From Candidatus Hydrogenedentota bacterium (GTDB lineage: Bacteria; Hydrogenedentota; Hydrogenedentia; Hydrogenedentales; SLHB01): a DNA stretch of 64,000 bases. The position numbers and the translations under genes were made by a program. Numbering within the stretch: position 1 is the first letter of the stretch; every line of letters starts with the position of its first letter. The notes beneath the pieces were generated by a model that ran no database searches, was not told the origin of the DNA, and saw only the letters and a list, made by a program, of their open reading frames with translations. Below, piece by piece: positions 6,924-54,228 of this stretch. Where the stretch lies: positions 96,001-160,000 of the forward strand of contig BTVY01000003.1 of the NCBI GenBank assembly GCA_045863335.1. Direction: 5' to 3'.

Positions 6924-6965
6924 GGAACACCCCTATGCGTGCACAAACCGCGCTCGACGAGAACG

Positions 6966-13249: not shown

Positions 13250-13522
13250 TTACGTCTCTCCGAAGCCGGACTCGATCAGGTCCCGCACGGCCTTCATGGC
13301 TTCCTCGGCATCCGGACCGCTGCAGGTCACTTGGAGGACGCTGCCCTGCGCGGCTGCCAGGGTTAACAACCCCATGATGCTCTTCGCGTTAACGCGGTGT
13401 CCGTTCAGCGAAATGTGGACATCGCTCTGGTACTTCAGAACCGTCTGCACCACCGACGCCGCCGGTCTCGCGTGAAGGCCTAGGGTATTTGTAATCCGCA
13501 ATTCTTCTGTTAAATCAGGCAT
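13250..13522 (-). CDS. ptsH: Phosphocarrier protein HPr
   Basis: GLHARPA (His15) and NAKSIMG (Ser46); start reassigned to the ATG at 13522 (90 aa). Confidence 0.94.
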   Translation of the reverse strand: MPDLTEELRITNTLGLHARPAASVVQTVLKYQSDVHISLNGHRVNAKSIMGLLTLAAAQGSVLQVTCSGPDAEEAMKAVRDLIESGFGET

Positions 13523-13681
13523 GATGAGGTCAACTACGGTCCATTTGTGTGTTAAACGCGCGTGCCGGAGGGGGCGCGTGGTCCATTTGAACACAAGACA
13601 GAAGCGTCGGCGGGTCGCGCCGAGGCATCAACACGGGCAGCGCAGTTCCCGGTTCTACGTGCAACCGGTGCGCGGCTACTA

Positions 13682-13710
13682 AGTATAAGTCAGGAAAAGC
13701 CAGAAATCAA
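13682..13710 (-). promoter_or_regulatory. Putative sigma70 promoter for ptsH-ptsI-dxr
   Basis: TTGATT-N17-TATACT on the minus strand. Confidence 0.55.
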
Positions 13711-13740
13711 AAGGATTTAGCTTTGGCCAGCGCCCCGAAG

Positions 13741-19636: not shown

Positions 19637-20098
19637 CTACGGTTCAATGACCGGCAAGGTTTCCGGATCGATCACCTGGTGGCACTTGTTGCAGGACTCC
19701 ACCAGCGCGGTGTAGTTCGTCTGGCTCGCCGCGAAGTCGCGTGCCTTGGCCGACTCAGCCAGTGCGACGGATGCGTCAAACATGGCTTTCGTCAAGTTCT
19801 GCCACTCCGGATTCTGCGAGTATTCGTCATTCCGGATTGCAATCAAATTGGCGATCTCGGCCCCGCTTCCGGCTTCATCTTCAAGGCTGCGCCAATCCCG
19901 AGGGCTGGCTGGCTCCTTTGCCATGGCGCCATGCAGGTTCTCCATAAGCGGATCGGCAAACTTCTTCATGAACCGGCCCGTTTCCATCACGGGCTGTGAA
20001 AGTGCGGGCTTCTCCTGGGCAAATGCCTGCCGCATTTCCAAACCGCACACCGTTAGCACCAGCGCCACCACCAGCAGTCCAGCAAACCACTTCGACAT
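19637..20098 (-). CDS. Cytochrome c'-like (class II) exported cytochrome
   Basis: Signal peptide, helical body, single C-terminal CxxCH (CNKCH). Confidence 0.75.
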   Translation of the reverse strand: MSKWFAGLLVVALVLTVCGLEMRQAFAQEKPALSQPVMETGRFMKKFADPLMENLHGAMAKEPASPRDWRSLEDEAGSGAEIANLIAIRNDEYSQNPEWQNLTKAMFDASVALAESAKARDFAASQTNYTALVESCNKCHQVIDPETLPVIEP

Positions 20099-20583
20099 CG
20101 TGAAAAACCTCCGAAGCCTGAGTTATTGCAACCACGTTCCGGCAGAATCGCCAGAACCTTACAGCACAAAACGCGTAGCCTACCGGGGAACCCCCCAGAG
20201 ATCAAGTCGGCGAATCGAGCAGGCCCTTGAAAGGCAGCTCGATCGACCAGATCAGTTGACTTCATTACGCGACAAATATTCAGACAACGCGATATAATGA
20301 AAGTGCTCATTGCCCGTGGCGGGGGATTGGCAACGGTGACAGAACGCTCCTGAATAACAACCCTGAGACGTAACCAACCTGATCCTCGTAGCGCATGCCA
20401 GGTACAACTTTGTACGATTCAGCGGCGATGCTCTCAGAAAATTTTTGACTAAAATGAGAATTCCGAGTAGAATTATCTCGCAGTTCGGTTTGCAACGATT
20501 CCGAAGGTTGTTGGTTCTACCCTTATTGTGTTGCAATTAAACAGTTTGTACTGTTTGTTGCGGGTTCGAGGGAGGGTCGAGAC

Positions 20584-22290
20584 GTGGTTCGGCGGTCGCT
20601 CGTTACGTGTAGTTTCGGCGCTTTTGCGGTTCTCACGCTAGCGTTTCCGGCGTTTGCCCAGGTGACTTCGCCCGTCAAGCCTCCCCGAAATGCCGTCGAA
20701 TCGGTGGGAAAGTCCATCGAGTTGGAGACAAAGGGGCTGCTGAGTTGGCTGTTTCGTCCCCGGGCCGCCAAGTTCCCCCGTGAGTTCCGGACCATTGACG
20801 CATCCGAGAATAATCCCATGCACCCCGGATGGGGAGGGGCCGGCTCGGAGCTGATGCGGTTGATGGAGGCCGACTACGCCGACGGATCGTCAGCACCCGC
20901 GGGCGGCACGCGGCTCAGTCCCCGTGCCATCAGCAACGGCTGCGTGGCGCAGACTCAGGACATTCCAAATTCCCACCAGATATCAGACATGTTCTGGCAG
21001 TGGGGGCAGTTCCTCGACCACGATCTGAGCCTCGTCGGCACGATGGACCCCGTCGAACCCTTTGATGTCGCCGTACCCATGGGTGATCCGTTTTTTGATC
21101 CTATGTCCACGGGTACGAAAGTAATCCCAGTCGAGCGGTCGTTCTACCGGATGATCGACGGCGTGCGTGAGCAGGTCAACGAACTGACCGCGTATATCGA
21201 CGCCTCGCAGGTCTATGGTTCCGATGCGGTGCGCGCGCAAGCCTTGCGCAAATTGGACGGCACCGGCCGCATGAAGATGAGCAAGGGGCGCTTGCTACCT
21301 TACAACACGCAGGGTCTCGAAAACGCCATGGGCACGGACCCCAGCTTCTTCCTGGCAGGGGATATCCGCGCCAACGAGCAGGTCGCGCTCACGGCGATGC
21401 ACACCGTTTTCGTGCGCGAGCACAACTGGTGGGCCAAACGCATCCGTCAGGAATACCCCAACATGGATGGGGAGAAAGTGTATCAGTGTGCCCGCGCCCT
21501 GGTCGCCGCCGAGATGCAAGCCATCACCTACAACGAATTCCTGCCTATTCTCCTCGGCCCCGATGCATTGAAGCCCTACGTGGGATACAAGGCCTACATC
21601 AACTCCGGCATCATGAACGAATTCGCCACGGCGGCCTACCGCTTCGGCCATACGATGTTGTCGTCCGAACTCAAACGGCTCGACGCCAACATGCAGCCCA
21701 TTCCGGAAGGCCATCTCGCGTTGGCGGATGCCTTCTTCAATCCGACCGAATACAGTGATATCGGCATCGAACCCTACCTGCGCGGCCAGTCGTTCCAAAT
21801 CGCGCAGGAGGTCGACAGCTTCATCGTCGACGACGTCCGCAATTTCCTCTTCGGACCTCCCGGATCCGGCGGATTCGACCTGGCCTCGCTCAACATCCAG
21901 CGCGGCCGCGACCACGGTCTCCCCGACTACAACGCCGTGCGCGTGGCGGCAGGGCTTCCAGCGCGCACAGATTTCACCCAGATTTCGTCCGACCCGGGCG
22001 TGCAGAATGCCCTGGCGAGCATGTACGCCTCCGTGGACGACATCGATCTCTGGGTGGGCGGTCTGGCGGAAGATCATGTGCCGGGCGCCATAGTCGGCGA
22101 GACGTTCTGGACGATCATCAAGATCCAGTTTGAAGCCCTCCGCGACGGCGACCGCTTCTGGTACAAGGAATACCTTCCCGGCTACCTCGTCGAAATGGTC
22201 GAAGCGCGTACCCTCAGCAAGATCATCCGCCGGAACACCAAGATCGGCAGCGAACTGCAGCAGAACGTATTTGTTGTGCCCAATCCATAA
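20584..22290 (+). CDS. Secreted haem peroxidase, peroxidase-cyclooxygenase (animal peroxidase) superfamily
   Basis: WGQFLDHD (distal His), TAYIDASQVYG, GDIRANEQ, AYRFGHT (proximal His), NIQRGRDHG, LRDGDRFWY. Confidence 0.93.
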   Translation: MVRRSLVTCSFGAFAVLTLAFPAFAQVTSPVKPPRNAVESVGKSIELETKGLLSWLFRPRAAKFPREFRTIDASENNPMHPGWGGAGSELMRLMEADYADGSSAPAGGTRLSPRAISNGCVAQTQDIPNSHQISDMFWQWGQFLDHDLSLVGTMDPVEPFDVAVPMGDPFFDPMSTGTKVIPVERSFYRMIDGVREQVNELTAYIDASQVYGSDAVRAQALRKLDGTGRMKMSKGRLLPYNTQGLENAMGTDPSFFLAGDIRANEQVALTAMHTVFVREHNWWAKRIRQEYPNMDGEKVYQCARALVAAEMQAITYNEFLPILLGPDALKPYVGYKAYINSGIMNEFATAAYRFGHTMLSSELKRLDANMQPIPEGHLALADAFFNPTEYSDIGIEPYLRGQSFQIAQEVDSFIVDDVRNFLFGPPGSGGFDLASLNIQRGRDHGLPDYNAVRVAAGLPARTDFTQISSDPGVQNALASMYASVDDIDLWVGGLAEDHVPGAIVGETFWTIIKIQFEALRDGDRFWYKEYLPGYLVEMVEARTLSKIIRRNTKIGSELQQNVFVVPNP

Positions 22291-22456
22291 TCGGTTCGCA
22301 TCAGTTCGTCTCGTTACGCTCTTCCCGTAGAAGTATTCGCGAATAAATCTCGCTTTAATGTGAACTTTTCCGTACTTCTGGGCATCATATCGGGGAGCAG
22401 AACTGTTCTTACTAGACCCGGGCGGATCGTTCCGCCGAGGGGCTACTGACAAGGAA

Positions 22457-23350
22457 ATGCTTGTGACAGAACAGGTTCCAGAAGAATCGAAGAAGCCGGA
22501 ACTGGTGGAAGCGAAGCCGGTATCCAAGCCGGAAACCGAATCCGAGGGTCCGGATATCACGCGGATCATCGTGCGGACCCGTGCCGCCGCGCCATGGGCC
22601 ATTGCCGCGGTGCTGATTACCGCTATCGTGGTCGTCGGCTTCCTTGTTTACAGCGTGACCTACCGCCTTCCCCGCGAAGCCGCCACGGTCGCCGTGGACA
22701 CCGTCGAGAAAACCGTCAACCGCATGAGCGAATTGCCGACCGGGATCGCCGCTGCCTTCAAGCCCAATGTGAACGTGAACACCACCATTCATCGCGCCGT
22801 TGACGATCTGAAGCAGGAGGCCAAGCTCGTGGTCATGACGGCTGGCGTGGATGTGGAAGTACAGAAGACGAGTGAGAAGGCAATTCTGTGGGACTACCTG
22901 CAACTCGGCGATACCTCCGTGCGGCTTCGCGCCCAGGACAACAAGGTGCAGTACTACATCCCCGTCGCCGAACTGTCGCGCGACAACTTCGAATACGATG
23001 CGGAAGCCGGCGCGGTCTGCCTTCATCTACCCGAACCCGTGCTCGACACCGATTTCGTTGATGTCCAAAGCAACCCCGACCTGTACCAGGTTCAGACCGA
23101 AGTGGGCTGGGGTCGTCTTGAAATGTACTCAGGCCGCTATCTCGAAGACGAAGCCCGGCGAACCCTTCGCGGCACCGTGCTCGAGGAAGGCGATAGCGAA
23201 TTACTCAGGGAACGCGCTCGCAAGGAAGCAGAGCAGGTGGTAACTGCAATGCTGTCGAATCTCGTGTCCGGGCTTAGGGAGGACGTGGCGTTTCGCGTTG
23301 AATTTGACGTAGCGCCATCCGAAACAACAAGCGTGTGGGTCAATGGGTAA
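22457..23350 (+). CDS. Membrane-anchored DUF4230-like protein
   Basis: Single TM segment, LHLPEP.L motif, helical C-terminus LRERARKEAE. Confidence 0.6.
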   Translation: MLVTEQVPEESKKPELVEAKPVSKPETESEGPDITRIIVRTRAAAPWAIAAVLITAIVVVGFLVYSVTYRLPREAATVAVDTVEKTVNRMSELPTGIAAAFKPNVNVNTTIHRAVDDLKQEAKLVVMTAGVDVEVQKTSEKAILWDYLQLGDTSVRLRAQDNKVQYYIPVAELSRDNFEYDAEAGAVCLHLPEPVLDTDFVDVQSNPDLYQVQTEVGWGRLEMYSGRYLEDEARRTLRGTVLEEGDSELLRERARKEAEQVVTAMLSNLVSGLREDVAFRVEFDVAPSETTSVWVNG

Positions 23351-23636
23351 AGAAAAAGTATTCGTTGTGGAGGACAAGAGTCCCGGGTGCATCGGGCAGG
23401 GGATGGCCGTGCTCGGGATACTCGTGTCTACCTTCTGGTTGCTGAATTTCACGTTTGGCGTCGTTGAGTTGCCCGACAATATGCCCTTCGTGGGCAACCT
23501 CGACGAGGCGGCCGCCGCCGCAGTGCTCTTTTCCTGCTTGCGCTACCTCGGTTTTGATGTGCTCCCCTTTGGCAGACGCGGAAAGAAATCGAACGACGAC
23601 GTTATCGACGTCAAGGTGGAAAAGTCGGAAGACTGA
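23343..23636 (+). CDS. Small membrane protein, DUF1232/YkvA-like
   Basis: ELPDNMPFVGNLDE matches the family D.IPD.IP..G.LDD motif; overlaps the upstream stop. Confidence 0.75.
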   Translation: MGKEKVFVVEDKSPGCIGQGMAVLGILVSTFWLLNFTFGVVELPDNMPFVGNLDEAAAAAVLFSCLRYLGFDVLPFGRRGKKSNDDVIDVKVEKSED

Positions 23637-24161
23637 CTACCGTCCCTCTTTCCGGGCGATATCTGCTTCCAGCGCGTCCACCACGTTTTGAAAGAGTTTG
23701 CGGTTTTCCTCGTTCATCTCGGACAGGGTCAGGTGGGCATCGAGGATCATCCGCGCCACATTGACCTCTGCTTCCGGTGCCTCCGGCAGGGGCTGAAGTT
23801 TCCCCTGAATCGGCGCGTCCATGATGAAGATGGTGTATAGCGCGTCGAATCCCGTGACCTTCAAAGCCTTCGCGACGCGCCCCTCCCGCACAATGAGCGT
23901 CGCCTTGCGGCCGAATTCATCCTTGGAGAAGCGGGCAACCTCGGCGAGTAACCCCAGATTCGTGCTGTCGATGCCCGTGGCTTCGGTCAGGTCAACGACG
24001 ATGTTATCAAAGTCCTTCTCAGTGAAGAGCTTGTCCAAGAACACGCGCAAGGCCTTGCTCAGCGGGAAGGTCCAGTTCGAGGTGAAGCCGATGGACCCCA
24101 CGAACTTGAGAACGCACACGTCGCCAAACCGCGCGTGGAAGACCTGACCCTGTGGCTCCAT
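23637..24161 (-). CDS. STAS-domain anti-sigma factor antagonist
   Basis: VVDLTEATGIDSTNLGLL with the conserved phosphorylatable Ser; C-terminal ILDAH..L..MN..N...F..V. Confidence 0.85.
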   Translation of the reverse strand: MEPQGQVFHARFGDVCVLKFVGSIGFTSNWTFPLSKALRVFLDKLFTEKDFDNIVVDLTEATGIDSTNLGLLAEVARFSKDEFGRKATLIVREGRVAKALKVTGFDALYTIFIMDAPIQGKLQPLPEAPEAEVNVARMILDAHLTLSEMNEENRKLFQNVVDALEADIARKEGR

Positions 24162-24282
24162 GCCCAATTCCTTTCCCTGCCTTGAACTAGCTGTATTGTT
24201 CACTGAAAGCGGTAGAATATCAATAGCCGGCGTAGGGTCGCGGACCGGGGTATAATGGGGTGAGGCGCAGCTAAAACACCTC

Positions 24283-24311
24283 TTGCATTTTTGTCAACAT
24301 TTTACTATACT
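24283..24311 (+). promoter_or_regulatory. Putative sigma70 promoter
   Basis: TTGCAT-N17-TATACT, 73 bp upstream of the ORF at 24385. Confidence 0.65.
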
Positions 24312-24384
24312 CGGCTCTGGGGAATCCGGTAAAGGCCAACCGGCAACCGGATCCTGGGGAACCTGAAGTCAGCAGGTAATTACT

Positions 24385-24882
24385 ATGAGCAAGCAGATCA
24401 CCCAAGCCAAGCAGGAGCGAATCGTCGAGGCCGTCCGCCACGGGCTTGAAGGCATGGCCGCCGTGGAGTTCGTCCAGAACAACGGCTTCGCCATGACCAC
24501 GGCGGGCATTGCGAAAAACCTGCGCAGCATGGGAGGGAGGGGACGCGTACAGGAACTGATCAACGACGGGAAGACCAACATCGAGATCATGGAACTGTGC
24601 TTTCCGGAAGCAGACCTTTCGCACCTGCACCCGGAACCACCCAGCCAGCAGGAGTTGTTCGGAAAAGAGCCCGCCACGCGCCGCAGCAGCGTCGTGCCCT
24701 TCCGAGACGACCCGCTCTACGAATCGAGGAAAATGTCCATCAAAGTCCCCGCCGACCTCTACGAAGCCATCCGCCTCGCCGCCAAAGCCGAAGGCAAATC
24801 TCAAAACGAACTCATCGTCGACGTCCTCACCTCCGCCCTCTCCCGAATCCCCGGCCCCCCTAGAGAAGACCAGGAAGACTGA
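24385..24882 (+). CDS. Hypothetical protein with a C-terminal ribbon-helix-helix-like DNA-binding domain
   Basis: KMSIKVPADLYEAIRLAAKAEGKSQNELIVDVL; strong GC3 codon bias; upstream promoter. Confidence 0.7.
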   Translation: MSKQITQAKQERIVEAVRHGLEGMAAVEFVQNNGFAMTTAGIAKNLRSMGGRGRVQELINDGKTNIEIMELCFPEADLSHLHPEPPSQQELFGKEPATRRSSVVPFRDDPLYESRKMSIKVPADLYEAIRLAAKAEGKSQNELIVDVLTSALSRIPGPPREDQED

Positions 24883-24902
24883 GTGTCTTGCGATTCGAAG
24901 TT

Positions 24903-25024
24903 CGAGGTGCCACGGGCTTCCAGCCCGTGAACCCCATGGGCAGGATGCCCATCCCTCTTCAAACGCAACATCGAAGATCCGAAACTGACGCGGAAATGCA
25001 ACGCCGGTCGAAAGCCGCCGCTAC
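24903..25024. repeat. REP-like palindrome cluster, copy A
   Basis: CGAGGTGCCACGGGCTTCCAGCCCGTG plus ATGGGCAGGATGCCCAT; an additional GTAG-type hairpin (reverse) at about 25003-25024. Confidence 0.8.
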
Positions 25025-25036
25025 GAAAGGTACTCC

Positions 25037-25336
25037 ATGGTCCTGTTACGCATTCTGGGCTGCACGGCGATAGCACTTGCTTTGATTGGTCTCGTGCTCA
25101 GCGATCCCACGGGGGTTCTATACCAGGGTCAGGACGCCGCCGGTCGTGGCATGTTCTCCGGGCTCGTATTCGCCTTCTTCGGCTTCCACAGCTTCGTCGT
25201 CAGTTTCGTTGCATTCGGAGTGTCGTTCTTGAAGAAGTATCAACCGCTCGATAAGTTGACGCTGGTTCTCGCGCGGGGCCCCTTCATTCTCTTCCTCCTC
25301 GCGATCATGGTTTCGCTCTTCTGGAACCCATACTAA
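25037..25336 (+). CDS. Small hypothetical membrane protein (about 3 TM)
   Basis: 99-aa hydrophobic ORF with an AAAGG RBS, lying between two REP clusters. Confidence 0.55.
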   Translation: MVLLRILGCTAIALALIGLVLSDPTGVLYQGQDAAGRGMFSGLVFAFFGFHSFVVSFVAFGVSFLKKYQPLDKLTLVLARGPFILFLLAIMVSLFWNPY

Positions 25337-25357
25337 TCCGAGAACCGAAGATGAGGG

Positions 25358-25518
25358 AACGAGGTGCCACGGGCTTCCAGCCCGTGATCCTTCATGGGCG
25401 GAAACGCCCATCCCTCTTCAATCGAGTTTTCCAACAGTCGCGACAACTCCGCCCCAGAGACATGGCCTGGAAGGCACTGACACCTCGAAATCACGGCCTG
25501 GAAGGCCGTGGCACCTCG
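25358..25518. repeat. REP/REPIN-like cluster, copy B
   Basis: 25358-25425 is identical to 28081-28148 (68 bp), followed by inverted units such as CACGGCCTGGAAGGCCGTGGCACCTCG. Confidence 0.85.
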
Positions 25519-25534
25519 AGGCAGTGCGTTCGCG

Positions 25535-26557
25535 TCAATCGTAGTGAGGGAAGTAATCCGGCCGGTCGTGGCGTAGCGAATCTGACGGACGGCCTGTCAA
25601 ACGTTGCGCGAACCAATACACGGCGCGTCCCCCATAGCCTATGGCGGCGCTGGCGCCGAAGGCCGTAGCCAGCGTGTTCGCCATGCCCATGTAGAATGGC
25701 GCCAACGTAAGCGACCATGTCGCATCGGCAAACTGTCCGAGGTGGAGCGACCCCGGACTCCCTTCGTTTGAGACCGACAACACGAGGAAGGGCATCGCAC
25801 CATAGATTCCCAGCAGAATCCACGCGAGGGTGGCGTACGACAAATTCCGCTTAATACGAGGCGGACGGTCGCACCACCACAGCCACGCGACCGATTGAAC
25901 GATGATCGCGAGGAATGCGAGAGCCACGAAAACGCCGGCGGTGGGCCCCGACGTTCCGAAATTCCCAGTAGAGATTCCAATGCTGGGCACCATGCAGAAC
26001 AACAGCAGCGCGCCCGCTAAACACTGCCAAATCCGGACCGGCGTCCAGCGGATGAACCAGGGACGCTCGCCGCGCGCCACCTGTCGTTCCCAATGCAACA
26101 CGACGAACCACGTGAATGCCACCAGCAAGGTTATCAGCGTCACGTTGTACAAGGTCCAAACCATCCCCACGTAGGGTTGGAGTGCTGGTGCACCGCTGGA
26201 TAGGGCCAGCAACACGGACAGGGTAAACGCGTTTAGGATCCGGCCGGCGCCGTAGCAACCGAGGCCGAGCATCGCGATCGCTGCCGGTCGCCGCCCCAAG
26301 CTTACCGTCGCCTCCTGCACGTGGGCGTGTTGCAGCAGTTCCTTCACGACCGCCGGATTCCCGAAGTGCTCACGGACGAGCAGGAACGCGTCTTCCTCCG
26401 TGATGGGGTCTTTTCCGTGGAGGTAACCGTTGAACCGATCCTCCACGTGGGACATCAGCTCTTCCTGAATCTCGGGGTCGATCTCTTCCGCAACGGTGAT
26501 CTGCCTGCACAAGGCACGCAGCCGTTCCTGTATCTCCGAACTGGGTGTCTTATCCAT
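25535..26557 (-). CDS. PadR-associated membrane protein (permease-prefix/HAAS-like N-terminal domain), paralogue 2
   Basis: IQEELMSHVED...EEDAFLLVREHFGNPA followed by several TM helices. Confidence 0.75.
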   Translation of the reverse strand: MDKTPSSEIQERLRALCRQITVAEEIDPEIQEELMSHVEDRFNGYLHGKDPITEEDAFLLVREHFGNPAVVKELLQHAHVQEATVSLGRRPAAIAMLGLGCYGAGRILNAFTLSVLLALSSGAPALQPYVGMVWTLYNVTLITLLVAFTWFVVLHWERQVARGERPWFIRWTPVRIWQCLAGALLLFCMVPSIGISTGNFGTSGPTAGVFVALAFLAIIVQSVAWLWWCDRPPRIKRNLSYATLAWILLGIYGAMPFLVLSVSNEGSPGSLHLGQFADATWSLTLAPFYMGMANTLATAFGASAAIGYGGRAVYWFAQRLTGRPSDSLRHDRPDYFPHYD

Positions 26558-27689
26558 GGGTGTCCTCCGCGAGCCGCAGCATCATGCTATTTGCTGCACT
26601 AGAGTCATGCGCGTGCGCGCTTCTTTCTTGTAACCGAACGCGTCGTCCATCTCATTGCGAGGTCGCTCGCGAACTGTCTGCACTTCGGCGGTAGCGCTGT
26701 AGGTACACGTAAGCTGCGCGTGCCAGAATTCCGACCACTGCAACGTATGCTAGTAAAAAAATGACACCAACGACATTGCTTGTGTGGAGTCCAGACCACC
26801 AACCACCAAACTCGATGGCGGATAGTCTTAGGGGGATAGCAGAGTCGCTCTGTGTGTGAATCGGAATGTATGCGACTGTGGCGGAAAGCGAAGAGTATGT
26901 AGTGACGAGTATCCATGTCGCCATTGTGTGTCGAAGAGTGCGCCGCGATCGGGGTGGAGTATCGCACCACCAAAACCAGGCCGCGGCTTGTGCAATCAGG
27001 CATAGCCCGGCATAACGCGGGAAACGCGTTGCGTATGAATACGTCGCTGTGACGGAATTGTCTAGACTAACGAATGCGAAAGATATGTAATCGATATCAG
27101 GGGTGATATGAACGATAAGCGCTACGGCAAACCCAATGAATACGATTCGACGAATGGACCATCTGGAAAACCAGAAATGCCGTCCGCGCCGGAGTCCGCG
27201 GCGCCAGTAGACTACGGTCGCCCAAATCACACAGGCTACCGCCACGTACGCGAGCAGGACGTACATGCTCCCAAGAGGAGGGAACGTAATTGCTGTGGCA
27301 AAACCGAGAGCGCCCATGACGATGAACAATGTGTGAAGCAGTTTCGCTATACCGAAGCAAATCAGACTCACGATTCCGATCGCTGCCAGTCGCCGCCCCA
27401 AGCTTACCGTCGCCTCCTGCACGTGGGCGTGTTGCAGCAGTTCCTTCACGACCGCCGGATTCCCGAAGTGCTCACGGACGAGCAGGAACGCGTCTTCCTC
27501 CGTGATGGGGTCTTTTCCGTGGAGGTAACCGTTGAACCGATCCTCCACGTGGGACATCAGCTCTTCCTGAATCTCGGGGTCGATCTCTTCCGCAACGGTG
27601 ATCTGCCTGCACAAGGCACGCAGCCGTTCCTGTATCTCCGAACTGGGTGTCTTATCCATGGGTGTCCTCCGCGAGCCGCAGCATCATGC
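26275..27689. repeat. 313-bp direct repeat (26275-26587 and 27377-27689), one mismatch
   Basis: Read directly. Offset is 1102 bp; it covers the padR 3' end and the first ~94 codons of both membrane genes; G/A difference at 26286/27388. Confidence 0.93.
26652..27659 (-). CDS. PadR-associated membrane protein (permease-prefix/HAAS-like N-terminal domain), paralogue 1
   Basis: Same N-terminus as 25535..26557; start overlaps the padR end; more AT-rich TM C-terminus. Confidence 0.75.
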   Translation of the reverse strand: MDKTPSSEIQERLRALCRQITVAEEIDPEIQEELMSHVEDRFNGYLHGKDPITEEDAFLLVREHFGNPAVVKELLQHAHVQEATVSLGRRLAAIGIVSLICFGIAKLLHTLFIVMGALGFATAITFPPLGSMYVLLAYVAVACVIWATVVYWRRGLRRGRHFWFSRWSIRRIVFIGFAVALIVHITPDIDYISFAFVSLDNSVTATYSYATRFPRYAGLCLIAQAAAWFWWCDTPPRSRRTLRHTMATWILVTTYSSLSATVAYIPIHTQSDSAIPLRLSAIEFGGWWSGLHTSNVVGVIFLLAYVAVVGILARAAYVYLQRYRRSADSSRATSQ

Positions 27690-27987
27690 CGTGCAGCGTG
27701 CTCCACCGTTCCGACCCCTCCGCCAGGGCTTCGCGACCCTTGGCCGTGATGTAGTAATACTTCCGGCGACGCCCGACCTCGGACTCCTGCCACTGCGACC
27801 GCACGAGCCCTTCCTTCTCCAGCTTGTGTAGGACCGGGTACATGGTCCCTTCCTGCCAGACGAAGGTTCCGTCGGCCTCCGTATTGACCTCTTTGATGAT
27901 CTCGTACCCGTAGCTGGACTTCTTGGCGAGGACCGTCAACACGAGTATCCGCGTACTCGCGCCCAGCAATTCTTTGTCGAAGTTCAT
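27652..27987 (-). CDS. PadR family transcriptional regulator
   Basis: ELLGAS...VL..L....SYGYEII, EGTMYPVLHKLEKEGLV, RRRKYY.IT.KG; RBS AGGAG before the ATG at 27987. Confidence 0.93.
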   Translation of the reverse strand: MNFDKELLGASTRILVLTVLAKKSSYGYEIIKEVNTEADGTFVWQEGTMYPVLHKLEKEGLVRSQWQESEVGRRRKYYYITAKGREALAEGSERWSTLHGMMLRLAEDTHG

Positions 27988-28000
27988 GGCATTGGCTCCT

Positions 28001-28041
28001 GTACCTAGAAGTACTATACCAAGAACTGCAAGGGTTGTCAA
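28001..28041 (-). promoter_or_regulatory. sigma70 promoter of padR with an overlapping imperfect palindrome (possible autoregulatory operator)
   Basis: TTGACA-N17-TATAGT; GTACTTCTAGGTAC (28001-28014) overlaps the -10 element. Confidence 0.7.
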
Positions 28042-28080
28042 GCGGTATTCAGAAATGACATTGAGGTGCGGTTGAGGTGC

Positions 28081-28236
28081 AACGAGGTGCCACGGGCTTC
28101 CAGCCCGTGATCCTTCATGGGCGGAAACGCCCATCCCTCTTCAATCGAACCAACAAGGGAACGCGAATGCCCCGCACCGAAGACATGGCCTGGAAGGCCA
28201 TGGCACCTCGAATCATGGGCGGGAAGCCCATGCCAA
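28081..28236. repeat. REP/REPIN-like cluster, copy C
   Basis: 68 bp identical to copy B, then inverted CATGGCCTGGAAGGCCATGGCACCTCG and CATGGGCGGGAAGCCCATG. Confidence 0.85.
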
Positions 28237-28242
28237 CTCGGG

Positions 28243-29193
28243 TCATAAATCGGGACGAATTGACTTCAGGAGAGATACGTTGCGCCGCATGCCGCGATGT
28301 TTCGCGCGAAGGATGGGAGTCCCGGAGAACTCTTCCCGAAAGGCATCCTCATCGATTTCAGAAATCCAATCCGGGTCGAGGTTCGCATGTCCGGGACGAG
28401 GATGAAAATCAGCCACGTCCGTCTCACTTGCTTTGCGATTCCACGGGCACACGTCCTGACAGATATCGCAACCGAAGACCCAGCCATCAAAACTCGACCG
28501 CAACTCGTTCGGGATTTCCCCGCGATTCTCGATGGTTTGGTAGGAAATGCAACGACGCGAATCGACGACTCCCGTTTCCACAATTGCATCGGTTGGACAC
28601 GCATCGATGCACGCGCGGCAGCTACCGCACTGGTCCGGCACCGGCGAATCCGGCTTCAGTTCCACCGTCGTAAGGATTGTCCCCAGGAAGAACCAGGACC
28701 CCAAATCGCGGCGTAGCACGAGACTGTTCTTGCCGATCCAGCCAATGCCGGCACGCGCGGCCCACGCCCGTTCCAGCACCGGACCGCTGTCGATGCTGCA
28801 GTAGGTCTGCACGCCATCTTCGAGGGTTTCGATGAACCGTGCCAACCGGCGCAGCGGCTTCAACATGACGCGGTGATAATCCCGCCCCCACGCGTACCGC
28901 GCCACTTTCCCAGCACCCTCTTCCGCGTCCGGACGCGGCGCATAGTAGTTTCGCGCAACCACGACCACGGATTTAGTGCCCGGCAATTTCTTCTGCACGT
29001 CCTGCCGGATGTCGCGCGTGCGCTCCATCCAGTCCATATCTGCATGATAGCCCTTGCGCAGCCACTCGCCAAGACGGTCTTCGGGATCAATTGGCGTAGC
29101 CGCAGCGATACCGCACGCGTCGAAGCGCTCTTCGCGCGCGCGTTGTTGGATAAGAATTGTGTGGAGCGAGCTCTTGGAAGGCGAGTTTCGCAT
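28243..29193 (-). CDS. queG: Epoxyqueuosine reductase
   Basis: ARYAWGRDYH, DSGPVLER, GIGWIGKN, CGSCRACIDACPT, CISYQTIE, GCDICQDVCPWN. Confidence 0.96.
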   Translation of the reverse strand: MRNSPSKSSLHTILIQQRAREERFDACGIAAATPIDPEDRLGEWLRKGYHADMDWMERTRDIRQDVQKKLPGTKSVVVVARNYYAPRPDAEEGAGKVARYAWGRDYHRVMLKPLRRLARFIETLEDGVQTYCSIDSGPVLERAWAARAGIGWIGKNSLVLRRDLGSWFFLGTILTTVELKPDSPVPDQCGSCRACIDACPTDAIVETGVVDSRRCISYQTIENRGEIPNELRSSFDGWVFGCDICQDVCPWNRKASETDVADFHPRPGHANLDPDWISEIDEDAFREEFSGTPILRAKHRGMRRNVSLLKSIRPDL

Positions 29194-29210
29194 GGTCTCA
29201 TTGGAGTCCC

Positions 29211-29311
29211 TTTATGGACAGTATGGACGACATGGACTCTATGGACATTATGCCTCTGGCAATGCTCTGCGGCCTGTCCATATCGTCCATTTAGTCCATA
29301 CCGTCCATAAA
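29211..29311. repeat. Inverted pair of 9-bp-period tandem repeats (4x ATGGAC-N3 and 4x GTCCAT-N3)
   Basis: tttATGGACagtATGGACgacATGGACtctATGGAC ... GTCCATatcGTCCATttaGTCCATaccGTCCATaaa. Confidence 0.85.
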
Positions 29312-29368
29312 CCGATCTCAGCAGGCGGAGACATGCTCTGAGCGCTATGAACGCGCACTCGCTTCGAT

Positions 29369-30097
29369 TTATCGCAAATTCACCCGCGCGCCGTACAACT
29401 CGATCATGCGGCGGTTCCATTCGTCGCCGCCGGGCAGGTTCGCGGTCTTGAACACGGGCGGTTCGGCGCCGCTTTCCGCGAACCGGCGCGACACGCCATA
29501 GACGATCTGCTCCACGATCGCGATGCCCACAAGGCTCGATGTGGGACCCGTCATGAGATCGGTTCCGGGAATCGGCAAGGCCGCGTCTCCCGGTCCGCCG
29601 CAATTATCGATGACCACGTCGCAGATCTCGTAGAGTTTCTTGTCCTGTCCCGCGCCGTATTTCGCGGCCCTCGATTGCTCCAACGAGGTAATCGCGACGG
29701 TCTTGATCCCGCGTCCCTTCGCGATGAGCGCCATCTCCACCGGGACGGCGTTTTTCCCGCTCGTCGAAACGATGGTCAACACTTCTCCGGCGCGGATGTC
29801 CTGCTTATCGAGCACCACCTTCGCGAGCCCTGGCAGGCGCTCGAGGTCGGTGCTGGTGATCGGTCCTTCATGTTGCATGAGCGCGGGGAAGAGGATGGCA
29901 TTCACCGGCACCAAACCGCCCGCGCGGTAGTACACCTCCTCGCCGATGAAATGGGAGTGCCCCGTGCCGAAAATGTGCCAGACGCCGCCGTCCAACAGGC
30001 TCTCCGCCACCAGACTAATCGCGGCGTCGATGGTTTTGGCCTGCGTTTGTTCTACTTGTTCCAGAATTTTGCGTGCGATGGAAAAGAATTCGAGCAT
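29369..30097 (-). CDS. SIS (sugar isomerase) domain protein, UPF0309-like
   Basis: IFGTGHS...EE..YRAGGL, STSGKN.VP.EMA, PPVFKTAN..GGD; RBS GGAGG before the ATG at 30097. Confidence 0.85.
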   Translation of the reverse strand: MLEFFSIARKILEQVEQTQAKTIDAAISLVAESLLDGGVWHIFGTGHSHFIGEEVYYRAGGLVPVNAILFPALMQHEGPITSTDLERLPGLAKVVLDKQDIRAGEVLTIVSTSGKNAVPVEMALIAKGRGIKTVAITSLEQSRAAKYGAGQDKKLYEICDVVIDNCGGPGDAALPIPGTDLMTGPTSSLVGIAIVEQIVYGVSRRFAESGAEPPVFKTANLPGGDEWNRRMIELYGARVNLR

Positions 30098-30196
30098 GAT
30101 GGTCAATACCTCCGATGGATTAGTATACCGAACGTTGCGGACTTTTGTTAGCATGCGCCTTACAACGACGCGGCCGGATGCAATGGAGGGTACGAA

Positions 30197-32593
30197 ATGC
30201 CGGGGAATCGTCGAAGTTTCTTCAAACGCGTGCTGGGCTTGTTCGGCGGAGGCGGCTTGCTGTCGGTCCCAACATCGGCCGCAGATCATCCTGGTGAGAC
30301 AGCGGGGGAGCACGCGGCGCCGGATCCCGCGGCAACACACGTGCTGCTCGACGGTCAAAGCACTGATGTCCATACGGACCTGGACTTCGACCTCGTCATC
30401 GTCGGCGGAGGCATCGCCGGAACCACGGCCGCCATCAGCGCGGCGCGTAACGGCGTGAAAGTTGCCCTGGTGCATGAGCGTTCCATGCTCGGCGGCAATT
30501 CCTCCAGCGAGGTGAAGCTCGTCCCCGAGAATATTGCGGGACATCGCGCGTGGGTGAAAGAAATGGGCATCCACGACGAGTTCCACACGGAAGAACGCGT
30601 GCGCGATCATCAGGTCGGCCGCGAGGGCCTCATGAACTGCCACTGGGATCTGGTCCTATATGAGAAGGTCATCCTGGAACCCAACATTACGCTGTTTCTC
30701 AATACCCACATGCACCGCGTTACCATGCGCGACTCGGCTCGTATCGATTCCATCTACTGCATCCAACTGGGTTCCGAACGAACCTTTACGCTTCGCGCGC
30801 CGCTTTTCCTCGACGCCACCGGCGATGGCGTGCTGGCCCACCGCGCCGGAGCGGAATGCCGCTGGGGCCGTGAAGCGCGAGCGGAGTTCGGCGAAGAGGC
30901 CGCGCCGGAAGCGCCCGACGACAAGAAGATGGGTAGCACGCTCTTCTTCCGCGCCATGGACACGGGACGTCCGGTACCGTTTGCGCGACCCGAGTGGGCA
31001 GCGGAGTTTCCCACCGAGGACGACTTGTACAAGCGCGGACATTCCCACATCGAAGGCGGGTACTGGTGGATCGAAGTCGGCACGCCGTACCACCAAATCC
31101 ATGACAACAACGCCATGACCCACGAAGCGTTGCGGCAATTGCTCGGCGTCTGGGATCACATCAAGAATCGCGGCGACCACGGCGCTGAGAACTACGGGCT
31201 GGAATTCGTCGGCTGGTGGCCGTACAAGCGCGAGTGCCGCCGGATCATGGGGGACTACGTCATTTCGCAGCAACATCTCCAGAATCCGAAACTCCTCGAC
31301 GACGCGGTCGCCTACGGCGCGTGGAGCATCGATATTCACACGCAAGGCGGTGTGCTCGCTCGGGATCAGATTCCCTGCCCGCCGCTGCGGAACGACGAGT
31401 ATTGGGACGAGGTAAGCACCTACCCTTACGGCATTCCCCTCCGCGCGCTCTACTCGAAGAATGTCGACAACCTCATGATGGCGGGTCGGCCGATCAGTTG
31501 TTCCTACGTGGGGTTCTCATCGTCCCGCGTACTCTCGACCGGCTGCATCGTCGGACAAGCTGTGGGTGTGGCGGCCGCTGTATGCATCAAGCGCGGTGCA
31601 TCTCCCCGTGGCGTGGCGCGGCGTCACGCGCGCGAAGTGCAACAACTCATCCTTAAACAGGACGGCCACATTCCCGGGGTCGCCAATGAAGATCCCAACG
31701 ACCTCGCCCGGCAGGCAAAGGTTACCGCAAGCAGCAGCGCGGCACTGCACTTTCCCGAAGGGGCCGAACCTTTCGATCTTTCCTTTCCCCACGCGCAGAT
31801 ATTCCCGGTTTCCGGCGATCGTGTCGATGAAATTGCGTTGTTCCTTGAGTCAGAACTCTACGTGGATACAAAAGTCTCACTCACGCTGCGAGAAGCCCCG
31901 CACGTGTGGGATTTTCGCGCGACCGAGGACCTGGCGAGCGCGACTGGCGTTGTGCCGGCGCGATCGCGCGGTTGGGTGACCTTTCCGATGAACGTTCGCG
32001 TGACGCCAGAGCGCTTCTACGCGGTATTTCTACCAGCCATGCCCGGCCTGCACTGGTTGGGATACCAAGACGTACACGGCATGCCTTGCGTCAGTCCCGT
32101 CGGCGTTACCCCGGCCGACCTTCCCGGCGCGAAACGGTGGCGACCCATGGTTGGCGGAGTTTCCCTGGCCATGCGCATGACGCCCAAGAGCCGCCCCTTC
32201 GAAGCAGCCAATGTGAACCGTGGTACGAACCGGCCGGATCGGTGGACCAATCTCTGGATGTCCGACCCGACACACCCGTTTCCCGCGACGCTCGAACTGG
32301 GCTGGCCAAAGGCGATTGCTTGTAGCACGATTCAACTGACCTTCGACACCAACGCAAATTACCGCGTACGCGACGCCCTGTTCCGATACCCGGAATGCGT
32401 ACGCGACTACCGATTGGATTACCGGGATGGTTCGGCGTGGAAGCGCATTGTGGAAGTAACCGGGAACTATGTGCGCCGCCGCGTACATCGCTTTGATCGC
32501 GTCAGGTCCGACGCGATTCGACTGACCGCGCTGGCAACGAACGGCAGCCCCAGCGCGCGGGTTTACGAAGTTCGGGTGTATGACGAAGCGTGA
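30197..32593 (+). CDS. Tat-exported FAD-dependent oxidoreductase with C-terminal F5/8-like domain
   Basis: NRRSFFK twin-arginine signal, VGGGIAG..AA..AAR, LGGNSSSE, DATGDG, KRECRR, NLMMAGR.IS. Confidence 0.85.
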   Translation: MPGNRRSFFKRVLGLFGGGGLLSVPTSAADHPGETAGEHAAPDPAATHVLLDGQSTDVHTDLDFDLVIVGGGIAGTTAAISAARNGVKVALVHERSMLGGNSSSEVKLVPENIAGHRAWVKEMGIHDEFHTEERVRDHQVGREGLMNCHWDLVLYEKVILEPNITLFLNTHMHRVTMRDSARIDSIYCIQLGSERTFTLRAPLFLDATGDGVLAHRAGAECRWGREARAEFGEEAAPEAPDDKKMGSTLFFRAMDTGRPVPFARPEWAAEFPTEDDLYKRGHSHIEGGYWWIEVGTPYHQIHDNNAMTHEALRQLLGVWDHIKNRGDHGAENYGLEFVGWWPYKRECRRIMGDYVISQQHLQNPKLLDDAVAYGAWSIDIHTQGGVLARDQIPCPPLRNDEYWDEVSTYPYGIPLRALYSKNVDNLMMAGRPISCSYVGFSSSRVLSTGCIVGQAVGVAAAVCIKRGASPRGVARRHAREVQQLILKQDGHIPGVANEDPNDLARQAKVTASSSAALHFPEGAEPFDLSFPHAQIFPVSGDRVDEIALFLESELYVDTKVSLTLREAPHVWDFRATEDLASATGVVPARSRGWVTFPMNVRVTPERFYAVFLPAMPGLHWLGYQDVHGMPCVSPVGVTPADLPGAKRWRPMVGGVSLAMRMTPKSRPFEAANVNRGTNRPDRWTNLWMSDPTHPFPATLELGWPKAIACSTIQLTFDTNANYRVRDALFRYPECVRDYRLDYRDGSAWKRIVEVTGNYVRRRVHRFDRVRSDAIRLTALATNGSPSARVYEVRVYDEA

Positions 32594-32661
32594 GCATGTG
32601 AGAAGGCAAAAGCAAAACAGTCACATACCGTCATTCTGAGCGAAGTGAGCAACGAGAATTA

Positions 32662-33525
32662 TCATTCGTCTTCGCTGCCACCGATCTTGAGATGCGCCAC
32701 GACGGGAAAATGGTCGCTCGGGTAGCGCCCGTCGTAATTGTACGTCACCGTTTCACACCGATCCGCAACGATGCCGCCGCGGGTCATGATCCAGTCGATG
32801 CGCCGGTCGGAATCGACTTCCGGCGCCTTGAAGGCGCCCCACGTGACCGCCGGTCCAACACGTTCCGCTGCCGTGTCCCATGCGTCAGCGAGTCCGCCGT
32901 CGATCAGAATCGAATACGGGATGCTGTTTGCAGCGATGGAATTGAAGTCGCCTGTTAGAACCAAGGGAACATCGTCCGGCAATGTCTCGATAAAATCGAG
33001 CACCACCTTCGACCCGCCTTGCCGCGCCGGTTCGCTGCGATGATCGAGGTGGGTGTTGATCAAATAGAAGGCCTGACCGCTGGCGTGGTGGTGGAACCGC
33101 GCCCAAGTCGCCATGCGGTTGCACGCCGAGTCCCAGGAGGAACTGCCAGGCGCCTTGGGCGTTTCCGAAAGCCAGAAGTTGCCGGATTCGATTGGACTGA
33201 TTAAGTCGGCCCGATACAGTACGGCCATCCGCTCGCCGCTGCCGTCCGCTTCGCGTGCCACGCCGAACCAGCGAAAGTGGGGGAGTTGCTCCACCAGATA
33301 ATCCGCCTGGAAGTCGAGGCATTCCTGCGTGCCGATGACGATCGGGTCTTGTTCGCGGATCATGTCGACGACAATTTCTTTGCGATTTTCCCAGGAATTG
33401 TCGCCGTCGTTCGCAGAACCAAACCGGATGTTGAACGACATGACGCGGAGATCCACCTCTTCTGCAAGGGACTGTGCACTTGCGGTGGCAAGCAGACCCA
33501 GCACAACAAGAATTCGAAGGAACAT
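32662..33525 (-). CDS. Secreted endonuclease/exonuclease/phosphatase family protein
   Basis: VMSFNIR, GTQE, NTHLDH, TGDFN, RIDWI, SDHFPV. Confidence 0.9.
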   Translation of the reverse strand: MFLRILVVLGLLATASAQSLAEEVDLRVMSFNIRFGSANDGDNSWENRKEIVVDMIREQDPIVIGTQECLDFQADYLVEQLPHFRWFGVAREADGSGERMAVLYRADLISPIESGNFWLSETPKAPGSSSWDSACNRMATWARFHHHASGQAFYLINTHLDHRSEPARQGGSKVVLDFIETLPDDVPLVLTGDFNSIAANSIPYSILIDGGLADAWDTAAERVGPAVTWGAFKAPEVDSDRRIDWIMTRGGIVADRCETVTYNYDGRYPSDHFPVVAHLKIGGSEDE

Positions 33526-33559
33526 AAGTGCAAATCCTTTCCCATCTCAATGGCACTGA

Positions 33560-34495
33560 TTACGACTTGGCCGCAGGCGAGGACGCGCAACACGGACATT
33601 CGACGGCGGCGAATAACGCGCGAACCCGGTCTATTGCAGGTTCGGAAAAGAAGCCGGTGCTGGTGCGTTCATAAGATTCCCGCAATGCGTCCACTTCGCG
33701 ATCCAACTGGCTGTGGAGCGCCGATATCCCCTCGCGCGCATCCCGGTCCAACTTCTTTGCAAGCCGTTCCACATGATCGCGCAGGATGCGGATGTCGTTC
33801 CAATCGCCCAGCGTCTGTTGGGTCTCTTTGAGGATAGCTAAAAAAGTCGTCATGGGTTCGTCATACAGGGGATGAAAAACTTCGCAGGTGTAGCGCAGCC
33901 GCTTGAACGCGATTCGGACCTGATGGAGATCTTCGTCGCCGTGGGACTCGATCCACATCGCGTTTTTCGCCACGACTTTGTCCAACCGCTTGTTCAGATT
34001 CGCGGCGGCCGCATCCGCGTAGCACCTCTTTCTACTCTTTACGTTGGAGAGAAGCTTCTCGAGGCTGGTCGAGAAGCGGCCATCCTGAATGAGATGTACG
34101 GAAGCGTCCACATTGGGATCTTCATCCTGACGCTCGGCGCGCAACGCGCGGAGGACTTTGGTGGCGGCGGTACGGGCCGGACCCTTCAGGGTCTTTCGGC
34201 GCTGACTCAGAAGATCAACGGTCACATCCAGTTCTCGAGCCGTACCGAGGCCCCGGGTCACGGCGCGCACCCGGCACTGAAACTCCTCCAGAACCTTCTT
34301 TTTGAATGTTTTTTTGTGCGCGCGGAGGTGGGAGCGGATTCTGCGTGACGCGACCCGGACGTCGTGAATCGCATCGGCATCGTTGTCGCCGGCTGGTCCC
34401 GCGGCAGCCTCCAAGGCTTCCACTCGCTCGGCAAGCGACTGGGTCGCAAATTCCTCATAAAGACTGCAGTGCTTAGGCACGTCGAACTCCGTCAA
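33560..34495 (-). CDS. CHAD-domain (polyphosphate-binding) protein
   Basis: IHDVRVASRRIRS, LG.ARELDV, LHQVRIAFKRLRY, Q..LGDWND. Confidence 0.9.
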   Translation of the reverse strand: MTEFDVPKHCSLYEEFATQSLAERVEALEAAAGPAGDNDADAIHDVRVASRRIRSHLRAHKKTFKKKVLEEFQCRVRAVTRGLGTARELDVTVDLLSQRRKTLKGPARTAATKVLRALRAERQDEDPNVDASVHLIQDGRFSTSLEKLLSNVKSRKRCYADAAAANLNKRLDKVVAKNAMWIESHGDEDLHQVRIAFKRLRYTCEVFHPLYDEPMTTFLAILKETQQTLGDWNDIRILRDHVERLAKKLDRDAREGISALHSQLDREVDALRESYERTSTGFFSEPAIDRVRALFAAVECPCCASSPAAKS

Positions 34496-54000: not shown

Positions 54001-54226
54001 GACCGCCCTCACCACCATCCTCGGCTGCGTGCCCCTCGCCCTCGGCAGCGCCATCGGCGGCGAAGTCTCCTTCGGCGGCCTCGGCCAGGCCCTTATCGGC
54101 GGCCTCACCACCGGCACCGTCCTTACCCTCTTCATCGTCCCCCTCACCTACACCGTCTTCGACGATATCCGCATCTGGTTCCTCGAATTCTTCTCCAACG
54201 TCGCCGGCATCTTCCACCGCGCGTAA
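51056..54226 (+). CDS. RND efflux permease (AcrB family), subunit 2
   Basis: ATG at 51056 overlaps the upstream TGA; GMLVDNSIVV.E, GIVVNNGIVLID, RFRPVMMT. Confidence 0.93.
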   Translation: MKRSLPGIALSRPITVIMLVITVIGLGIIARYRIPLEFLPPMDLPFIICQIPYVGATPEQVEKEVAIPAEGEFRTVSSLKRIQTTSDMNGCLVRMFFDMGTDMSLATAEVRDRIERLKLVLPDEIERVALRKFSANSMPVMALALYSPEDDEELTYRVRTILQPRMMRLEGVADVSVFGKPEREVLIEFNQSELRSRGLSLFQVVSSLRQTSINMTVGDMVDGNMRYYVRAIDEFTTPEDLGQLVVGPNSLRLRDVANVGYRTREVDSGYAIDGQSGTFLLVRKESEANAINTCAEVRAELARMTEDPLFKDVQYFMFFDQSEVILSALEGLVAAGQFGGALAVVVLFLFLGRIRPTLIVALAIPASVVVALVFMFFIGMSLNLVTMISLIIGLGMLVDNSIVVIENITRHVQLGYKPKEAALRGASEMAMAITASTLTTCVVFIPILYMGVGEMSTYMRAFAVPITVSLGASLVIALTVIPLAASRMKPRHELALARVFNRPAMAQTPGSAAVTTEKRRSRFPKLMHPIHYLISTYIKCLDWVLRWRLATAIVVLFVLALTYLIPFSHLKRQGMPTVDTRRISIEVVLDQGFTLDQSRATFLEIEDILDEQREELGIKNVFSRYDPSGGEVDIYLYTDEDLEESGEELAYSTEDAMDILWQRLPSRVPGGELRFSIAEASETSSRSFALQIRGDDARTLATYADRLKVLMQENIPEITEVITDSERAKQEVQLDVNETLAEFYGLTPLAIAQTVDFALRGIQITKLKQGGREIPVWAQFQEEDRKSRGNLENVTVYGAKGEPVPINRVVEFSKGRSPQAISRVNGKNVVTVTAKIRGENLGGVLDELKTILNDFDMPTGYSVEFGDELMALDENMASFSTALFLAVILIYIVMGSVFESYLLPWSILTTLPLAGVGVAWSLYIFDSAVDTVTMIGVILLAGIVVNNGIVLIDYINQMRKTGMDRHDAIIGSGRDRFRPVMMTALTTILGCVPLALGSAIGGEVSFGGLGQALIGGLTTGTVLTLFIVPLTYTVFDDIRIWFLEFFSNVAGIFHRA

Positions 54227-54228
54227 TC

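Follow-up and report, generated by a model that had tools for sequence, protein, structure and literature searches.

Organisation of the padR locus

The sequence analysed here, a 64-kb stretch of a Candidatus Hydrogenedentota contig referred to as the window, carries on its minus strand an operon made of a promoter, the regulatory gene padR, a first membrane protein gene (gene A), a 64-bp spacer and a second membrane protein gene (gene B) (Table 1). The two membrane proteins have in common an almost identical N-terminal part, the head, and continue into a membrane part, the tail. The padR product matched PF03551 above the cut-off of 27 bits and TIGR03433 (padR_acidobact) below the cut-off of 101.8 bits.

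Table 1 Features of the padR operon and its immediate flanks, in window positions
Feature	Position	Strand	Remark
REP-like hairpin cluster 5′ of promoter	28081-28225	.	flanking feature
sigma-70-type promoter	28013-28041	-	-35 TTGACA 28036-28041, 17-bp spacer, -10 TATAGT 28013-28018; read from sequence
putative PadR operator 1, palindromic, between -35 and -10	28017-28035	.	4 mismatches to 19-bp consensus
putative PadR operator 2, overlaps -10	28002-28020	.	5 mismatches to same 19-bp palindromic consensus
padR, 111-aa winged-helix repressor	27652-27987	-	PF03551 91 bits; TIGR03433 89.7 bits
repeat copy 1: padR 3′ end with RBS and gene A head	27377-27689	-	
gene A, 335 aa	26652-27659	-	head 27378-27659 (94 codons), tail 26652-27377 (multi-helix membrane domain)
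unique spacer, 64 bp	26588-26651	-	
22-codon ORF in spacer	26582-26650	-	starts 1 nt past A stop, overlaps next ATG
repeat copy 2: padR-end remnant with RBS and gene B head	26275-26587	-	
padR-end mini-ORF MMLRLAEDTHG* inside repeat copy 2	26550-26585	-	
gene B, 340 aa	25535-26557	-	head 26276-26557, tail 25535-26275
REP-like hairpin cluster 3′ of gene B	25358-25523	.	first 68 bp = 28081-28148, offset 2723

The first-pass annotation had reported two 313-bp blocks that differ at one base and comprise the last padR codons, the ribosome-binding site (RBS) and the N-terminal domain, with identity stopping abruptly at the first transmembrane helix; all of this was confirmed. In the assembled contig the copies lie at an offset of 1102 bp, have sharp ends on both sides and form by far the longest direct repeat in the window. 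Each contains 30 bp before the start codon, corresponding to the last codons of padR (MMLRLAEDTHG*) and including the RBS, followed by 283 coding bases (94 codons and one base); the padR stop overlaps the gene A start by 8 nt. A 789-bp unique segment (26588-27376), consisting of tail A and the spacer, separates the copies. Identity between the two proteins stops about 7 residues into the first hydrophobic helix (residues 87-105 in A), and the heads showed no synonymous difference over approximately 66 synonymous sites. The single mismatch (26286 G, 27388 A) specifies Pro91 in B and Leu in A. Residue 91 stands where the first membrane helix begins, and proline was seen there in 1 of the 138 family members aligned; the proline of B is either a private change or a base error, and may impair B.

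The spacer contained no clear padR remnant outside the exact repeat. Short open reading frames (ORFs) run from the gene A stop to the gene B start (26550-26650): the stop of the 22-codon ORF overlaps the padR-end mini-ORF, which overlaps the B start by 8 nt. Such a chain could possibly serve translational coupling, or have arisen by chance.

Tails A and B are distant members of one membrane protein family

The tails had been described at first pass as diverging completely. This was not the case: tails A and B are distant homologues belonging to one multi-helix membrane family, not different domains. They aligned collinearly from end to end at approximately 24% identity, with a local score of 218 (mean of 1000 shuffles 38, standard deviation 6, maximum 74). 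Hydropathy analysis revealed 4-5 hydrophobic segments in the membrane part of both proteins, and alignment-based models predicted six long helices in each, in the same order, with predicted local distance difference test (pLDDT) values of 88 and 86. The family is characterised by conserved W/G/P motifs. Against a tail profile from which A and B had been left out, tail A scored 126 bits (-0.8 for the best of 200 shuffles), and it retained 15 of 19 conserved residues, for a family median of 15.5. We therefore consider tail A to be a maintained member of the family and not a decaying copy.

Searches for a related fold were negative for both tails. Foldseek with the model of B returned no match at E ≤0.001, and VIA gave as best hit a designed helical protein (Z 6.6, root-mean-square deviation 6.5, 164 aligned residues), which is uninformative. 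For tail A, the ESM Atlas returned no feature match and only structure matches with a TM score of at most 0.42 by query. Pfam searches with A, B and the 138 members gave no consistent match.

The two tails differ in composition, the padR-proximal one being richer in AT as first noted: GC content was 0.533 in tail A vs 0.608 in tail B, and GC content at third codon positions (GC3) 0.544 vs 0.744. Codon adaptation was 0.50 for tail A and 0.66 for tail B. The window baseline, measured on 38 chunks of 25 genes, was 0.73 ± 0.04 for GC3 and codon adaptation alike, with a codon adaptation minimum of 0.62. This profile, proposed as a check at first pass, marks tail A as atypical and tail B as normal. 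Tail B has host-like codon usage, and relatives in other genomes share 64-77% tail identity with it.

Arrays of head-tail genes occur in related loci

The family comprises 386 representatives at E ≤0.001. A scan of species-representative genomes yielded 38 related loci (L numbers), of which 18 are titled Hydrogenedentota and 8 Latescibacterota. Thirteen loci have 2-4 family genes behind one padR and 17 have a single gene; the other 8 could not be classified, contig ends being too near or no padR being in view. Some of the arrays lie on contigs of 0.9-7.9 Mb. The downstream copies are whole genes with a start codon and RBS, mostly 10-160 bp apart and with no gene in between; the array in L010 ends in a cut-off head. 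A decayed padR end was found ahead of copy 2 in L004 and L007. In the latter locus, the two copies are separated (6168-7918) by a padR-end remnant and a 518-aa ORF; part of this ORF, which may be insertion sequence-like, has a 98% identical counterpart at another place in the locus. The gap between padR and the first head is approximately 280-360 bp in L014, L015, L016, L019 and L021; in most loci the two overlap or abut.

The nearest relative found, L001, is syntenic with the window upstream of the locus (88% nucleotide identity) and has padR followed by a B-type gene only. L002, titled Hydrogenedentes, is syntenic on both sides and carries two family genes of other types with heads 74% identical. 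No A-type tail was found in any relative by family and tail-only searches of the protein collection. L001 and L008 are titled Nitrospiraceae; given the 88% identity of L001 to the window and its gene order, which is that of the Hydrogenedentes-titled contig, the label may be wrong.

Heads and tails are evolutionarily decoupled

Head-tail comparisons were carried out on 52 of 58 genes, 6 with short or cut tails having been dropped. In the window, synonymous sites were identical in the heads and saturated between tails A and B. Synonymous divergence (dS) was computed for 9 array pairs, picked for high head identity from the 22 that lie outside the window: 6 of them had a head dS of 0.26-0.56 and a tail dS of at least 1.67 or saturated. 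In contrast, all three orthologue pairs had equal values in the two parts (0.38-0.52 and 0.34-0.42). The head is therefore under no special synonymous constraint, and the contrast seen in the arrays requires recombination.

Plots of DNA identity for 10 array pairs all showed a fall between codons 70 and 100, at no fixed site, whereas the orthologue pair L014_4/L015_2 continued at 70-100%. When tails were less than 40% identical, the median synonymous identity of head cores was 0.76 within loci (19 pairs) vs 0.47 between loci (1295 pairs). Of 32 array genes, 27 had their best head match within their own locus and 17 their best tail match. Among the 9 proteins whose heads share at least 83% identity with that of B, four tail types occur. 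Trees of 19 rows were also in conflict, as judged by approximately unbiased (AU) tests on groups named once the trees had been seen: an A+B clade was rejected in the tail tree (p 0.004), and clades by tail type were rejected in the head tree (p 1.7e-6, 0.004 and 0.004).

Collectively, these data indicate that heads and tails are evolutionarily decoupled across the family. The first-pass annotation had suggested looking among homologues for constant heads, variable tails and differences in copy number; besides the decoupling, arrays were present in 13 of 38 loci. Of the cases seen, the repeat in the window is the most recent; the array pair that ranks next is 95.5% identical over 202 bp.

The identity of PadR proteins tracked that of heads more closely than that of tails (Spearman 0.58 vs 0.40, 1058 pairs). 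This was not used as an indication of co-evolution, shared ancestry being a sufficient explanation.

In two lineages, the last tail of an array is the one shared between relatives

In both lineages with close comparators, the distal tail was shared and the proximal tails were private. The first consists of the window and L001. The second consists of L014, L015 and L016, with 4, 2 and 1 copies, respectively; their PadR proteins are 98% identical, and L014 and L015 are syntenic on both sides. These three loci have in common only the last tail (81-89% identity), and the four proximal tails are approximately 20% identical to everything else. Insertion at the head and deletion from head to head would both touch non-terminal tails only, and the order therefore fits gain and loss alike. 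A general rule of higher AT content in the proximal tail than in the copy that follows was considered and dropped: it applied to 9 of 14 arrays, with no clear polarity.

In L014, L015 and L016, the 492-aa terminal gene that they share precedes a variable number of tandem repeats of approximately 240 bp (12539-13718, 9451-9935 and 7166-7313, respectively).

The head resembles HAAS domains and is encoded next to PadR

HAAS domains are defined by three consecutive helices, the third kinked at a GxP motif; they are always encoded beside a standalone PadR-like winged helix-turn-helix protein and are often fused to uncharacterised domains with multiple transmembrane segments, as described in PMC11237479. 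The head was modelled as three helices (residues 7-24, 28-46 and 54-65, continuing after a break from residue 68), with a predicted kink at G66-N67-P68, and the GxP motif was present in at least 105 of 138 family members. The head matched NF038403 (perm_prefix_1) with an E-value of approximately 4e-6 in both A and B, at 26.4-26.5 bits and thus below the cut-off of 30, and a match at E ≤0.001 was obtained for 97 of the 138 members. None of the Pfam HAAS-superfamily models (DUF1700, DUF1129, DUF1048) was among the matches of A or B or among the 25 families listed for the 138 members. padR is directly upstream in 35 of 38 loci; in the three others, the contig ends within 170 bp (two loci) or another family tail lies upstream (one locus). 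The padR-A-B locus is thus probably a HAAS-PadR system; because no Pfam HAAS model matched, we base this assignment on anatomy and context.

Modelling of a PadR dimer with the head weakly supports a physical interaction. The predicted complex scored 0.40 (runs of 0.40, 0.14 and 0.50) and the best of 3 controls 0.00; contacts agreed by at least 45% between runs and the pLDDT of the partner was at least 64. The mark used for such predictions was reached by 116 of 157 solved pairs vs 2 of 215 mismatched pairs, and scores of 0.60 or less account for only 18 of the 157 solved pairs and for both mismatches that passed.

Upstream of padR, two copies of a palindrome overlap the TTGACA-17-TATAGT promoter. 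TTGACA was found in 29 of 34 padR upstream regions, and the promoter is kept in L001 and L002. The 19-bp palindromic consensus, drawn by eye from the same upstream regions on which it was scored, was present in 33 of the 34, compared with 1.1% of 1500 background stretches. It replaced a first operator guess, TAC-N6-GTA, which matched only 3 of 34 regions. Because the palindrome overlaps the promoter and Listeria PadR operons are autoregulated according to the published descriptions (PMC6624303), we infer that PadR would repress its own operon.

A model for the origin of the array

On balance, and with somewhat better than even confidence, we favour a model in which the locus is a PadR-HAAS-type operon with a changeable array of membrane partners: the head would be the anchor for recombination, A the newcomer and B the resident. 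In operons of this type, padR and 1-4 members of a single gene family follow one promoter that contains a conserved palindrome; each member has a cytoplasmic three-helix head and a tail of about six helices, and within an array young heads are joined to old tails. The head would bind the PadR dimer, and the membrane tail, on encountering its stimulus, would cause repression to be lifted; the stimulus is probably a membrane-active compound or stress on the envelope. Differing tails would broaden the inputs of a single PadR switch. Only the head (approximately 200-310 bp) would be similar enough for ordinary homologous recombination, and could serve as the anchor. Incoming DNA from a close relative with another tail would cross over in the padR-head stretch, either through a single crossover with a 1102-bp circle or through a homologous anchor combined with an illegitimate far end; either route would be expected to leave two 313-bp copies around a unique segment of 789 bp. 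The new tail would be placed beside padR and the resident gene shifted downstream whole. Since the duplicated stretch includes the padR end with its RBS, the displaced gene B would stay expressible. Head-to-head recombination would be the reverse step, always deleting the proximal tail; the last tail of an array would persist and proximal tails would turn over. A recombinase would not be required.

This model retains part of the first-pass proposal that a foreign C-terminal module displaced an older version. The decoupling of heads and tails, the presence of the B-type gene alone in L001 and the unusual codons of tail A all agree with displacement. A foreign origin of tail A is a possibility argued from composition, its GC3 drop of 0.23 relative to the head being the second largest of 52 genes. 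The resistance function proposed at first pass as an alternative to sensing found no support.

Several observations weigh against the model. Tail GC3 is below head GC3 in 40 of the 52 genes (median difference -0.05), which makes the drop partly a family trait. The tail-only search for a donor returned only tail A itself among 1088 candidates, and the fold searches with the B model and tail A gave no matching solved fold. Tail A sits on a long branch within the local clade, and a clade with B types was not rejected (AU p 0.35); the late naming of the AU groups counts here too. Three of the 9 array pairs examined for dS resemble plain duplicates, and the L025, L002 and L010_3 arrays show little or no homogenisation of their heads. 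When head protein identity was at least 80%, median synonymous identity was 0.795 within loci (14 pairs) vs 0.80 between loci (15 pairs); heads are therefore renewed roughly on the timescale of species splits and are not always younger. Finally, the sharing of distal tails was seen in two lineages, and loss by itself would also produce it.

The main competing explanation, which we judge unlikely albeit a serious contender, is that A and B are old tandem paralogues whose heads were recently homogenised by gene conversion, that of A overwriting that of B with no outside DNA, and that L001 lost A by head-to-head deletion. Old arrays do exist, as in L002 with its 74% identical heads and synteny on both sides, and partial head homogenisation is common (85-95% DNA identity over approximately 200 bp). 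The decayed padR end before copy 2 in L004 and L007 could carry a conversion tract 5′ of the start codon, and both the position of tail A in the local clade and the search without a donor would fit. Against conversion stands the codon usage of tail A, which is far from that of B and of the window despite a common promoter, and no A-type tail was found in any relative. Moreover, the spacer has no clear padR remnant outside the exact repeat, and the near-identical heads with different tails among relatives mean that gain or loss is needed as well.

An assembly effect, by which two strain alleles were joined in tandem or two similar heads were collapsed to one consensus, appears improbable. The repeat is known from assembled sequence, A and B are each found on one contig in the protein collection, and no other array pair comes near 312 identical positions out of 313. 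However, 13 of 38 loci contain tandem arrays, in some cases on megabase-scale contigs; a tandem path would need a real spacer-to-repeat junction, which two alleles alone would not supply; and neither the two frames nor the RBS are disrupted. A collapse might have increased the identity, yet it leaves the family-wide conflict between heads and tails unexplained.

We give still less credit to a programmed switch, that is, a site-specific or phase-variable exchange of the tail expressed beside padR. The sharp ends of the repeat and the REP-like direct repeats that bracket the operon would suit such a mechanism, but neither L001 nor L002 has these direct repeats. A and B are each complete, carry an RBS and belong to a single operon, which leaves no silent cassette, and the right-hand boundary ranges over codons 70-100 among arrays. 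No recombinase was present among the 9 adjoining ORFs scanned, which are housekeeping-type or unnamed.

Whole-gene duplication with rapid divergence of one tail under selection, already doubted at first pass, is refuted by the contrast at synonymous sites, which are saturated in the tail and show no difference in the head. Tails do evolve faster (dN/dS between B and L001 0.21, vs 0.04 for heads), but the relatives of tail B elsewhere place the A/B tail split long before that of the heads (AU p 0.004).

More broadly, and tentatively, since we think it less likely than not, the family in Hydrogenedentota, Latescibacterota and allies may constitute a polymorphic-sensor system. A mobile pool of old membrane inputs would recombine behind a PadR-matched head, the newest next to the promoter, with selection for compatibility between head and PadR, beyond homology, keeping heads uniform. 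C-terminal displacement would then serve signalling instead of killing, with several inputs feeding one repressor at once. Should lateral gain of tails by the arrays be real, the displacement mechanism familiar from toxin loci would diversify sensors as well, leaving working genes, not orphans. PadR-HAAS pairs are a proposed and barely tested alternative to two-component signalling, and one PadR facing identical heads with very different membrane parts is a natural experiment that splits input (tail) from output (head). The proposed persistence of the last tail can be examined in strain collections.

Comparison with known systems

The locus has the anatomy of the HAAS-PadR systems described in PMC11237479, with a standalone PadR beside a three-helix, GxP-kinked domain that is N-terminal to an uncharacterised multi-transmembrane part. 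That account proposes HAAS-PadR as an alternative to two-component signalling, and signal transmission by the head is likewise at the stage of a proposal there. The present locus differs in having no Pfam HAAS match, a tail family with no named model or solved fold, and tandem arrays with recombined heads, of which no mention was found there. Unlike perm_prefix_1 (NF038403) proteins, A and B have no permease domain after the head, and their scores are below the curated cut-offs.

The Listeria protein LftS is HAAS-like. Listeria lltR-lmo0600 (encoding a DUF1700 membrane protein), lstR and lftRS are described as autoregulated PadR repressors co-transcribed with membrane proteins, with approximately 150-fold induction (PMC6624303; bioRxiv 10.1101/2023.07.27.550809). 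According to the descriptions of these operons, LftR requires the co-regulator LftS for induction by a membrane-active antibiotic. The present operon differs from them in its membrane domain and operator, and arrays do not figure in those descriptions.

The first-pass annotation had likened the locus to cassette replacement in polymorphic toxins. C-terminal displacement in rhs loci (PMC2935791) is a fair analogy: here too, 5′ and 3′ parts are decoupled and the 5′ parts are near-identical within the locus. In the accounts of rhs, Vibrio type VI secretion system (T6SS) effector-immunity and Neisseria mafB-CT arrays, near-identical 5′ repeats within a locus precede lower-GC variable 3′ parts, the incoming part is proximal and the shared ancestral part is pushed downstream (PMC2935791, PMC5361080, PMC4287609). 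For the first two, the proposed mechanisms involve either circular intermediates or homology-facilitated illegitimate recombination (PMC2935791, PMC5361080). The analogy does not extend to the modules themselves. The rhs, T6SS and mafB tips are described as non-homologous toxin domains, mostly silent fragments with immunity genes, whereas the padR array has homologous membrane tails, a displaced gene that is whole with its RBS, no immunity genes and a regulatory setting. A polymorphic toxin system is ruled out by the homologous tails, the whole downstream copies and the lack of immunity genes.

No account of such PadR-head arrays was found in the open-licence literature, subscription papers and supplements lying outside the search. 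The single ingredients are known already and it is their combination that was not found; the web tables of PMC11237479 may list the tail family.

Flanking DNA and other features of the window

Repetitive extragenic palindrome (REP)-like hairpin clusters are present at 24901-24968 and on both sides of the operon (Table 1), where two clusters with 68 identical bases form direct repeats 2723 bp apart. The clusters were not found in L001 or L002 and sit where gene content differs, and a role for them in the array was not supported. A 99-aa hydrophobic ORF (25037-25336, plus strand) lies between two clusters; it had no significant family match, and none in L001 or L002. Rfam gave no match in window positions 20000-34000. 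Between queG and padR, L001 (6029-7363) and L002 (4908-6254) carry a family-2 glycosyltransferase gene, in place of which the window has a REP-like cluster (28000-28243).

Elsewhere in the window, a Y1 (IS200/RAYT-like) transposase gene (55710-56447, minus strand; PF01797, 56 bits) is flanked by 34-bp inverted repeats (55572-55605 and 56439-56472). This gene and a lower-GC 344-aa ORF (54559-55593) are bracketed by an exact 42-bp direct repeat (54187-54228 and 56470-56511) that copies the 3′ end of an efflux-pump-like gene.

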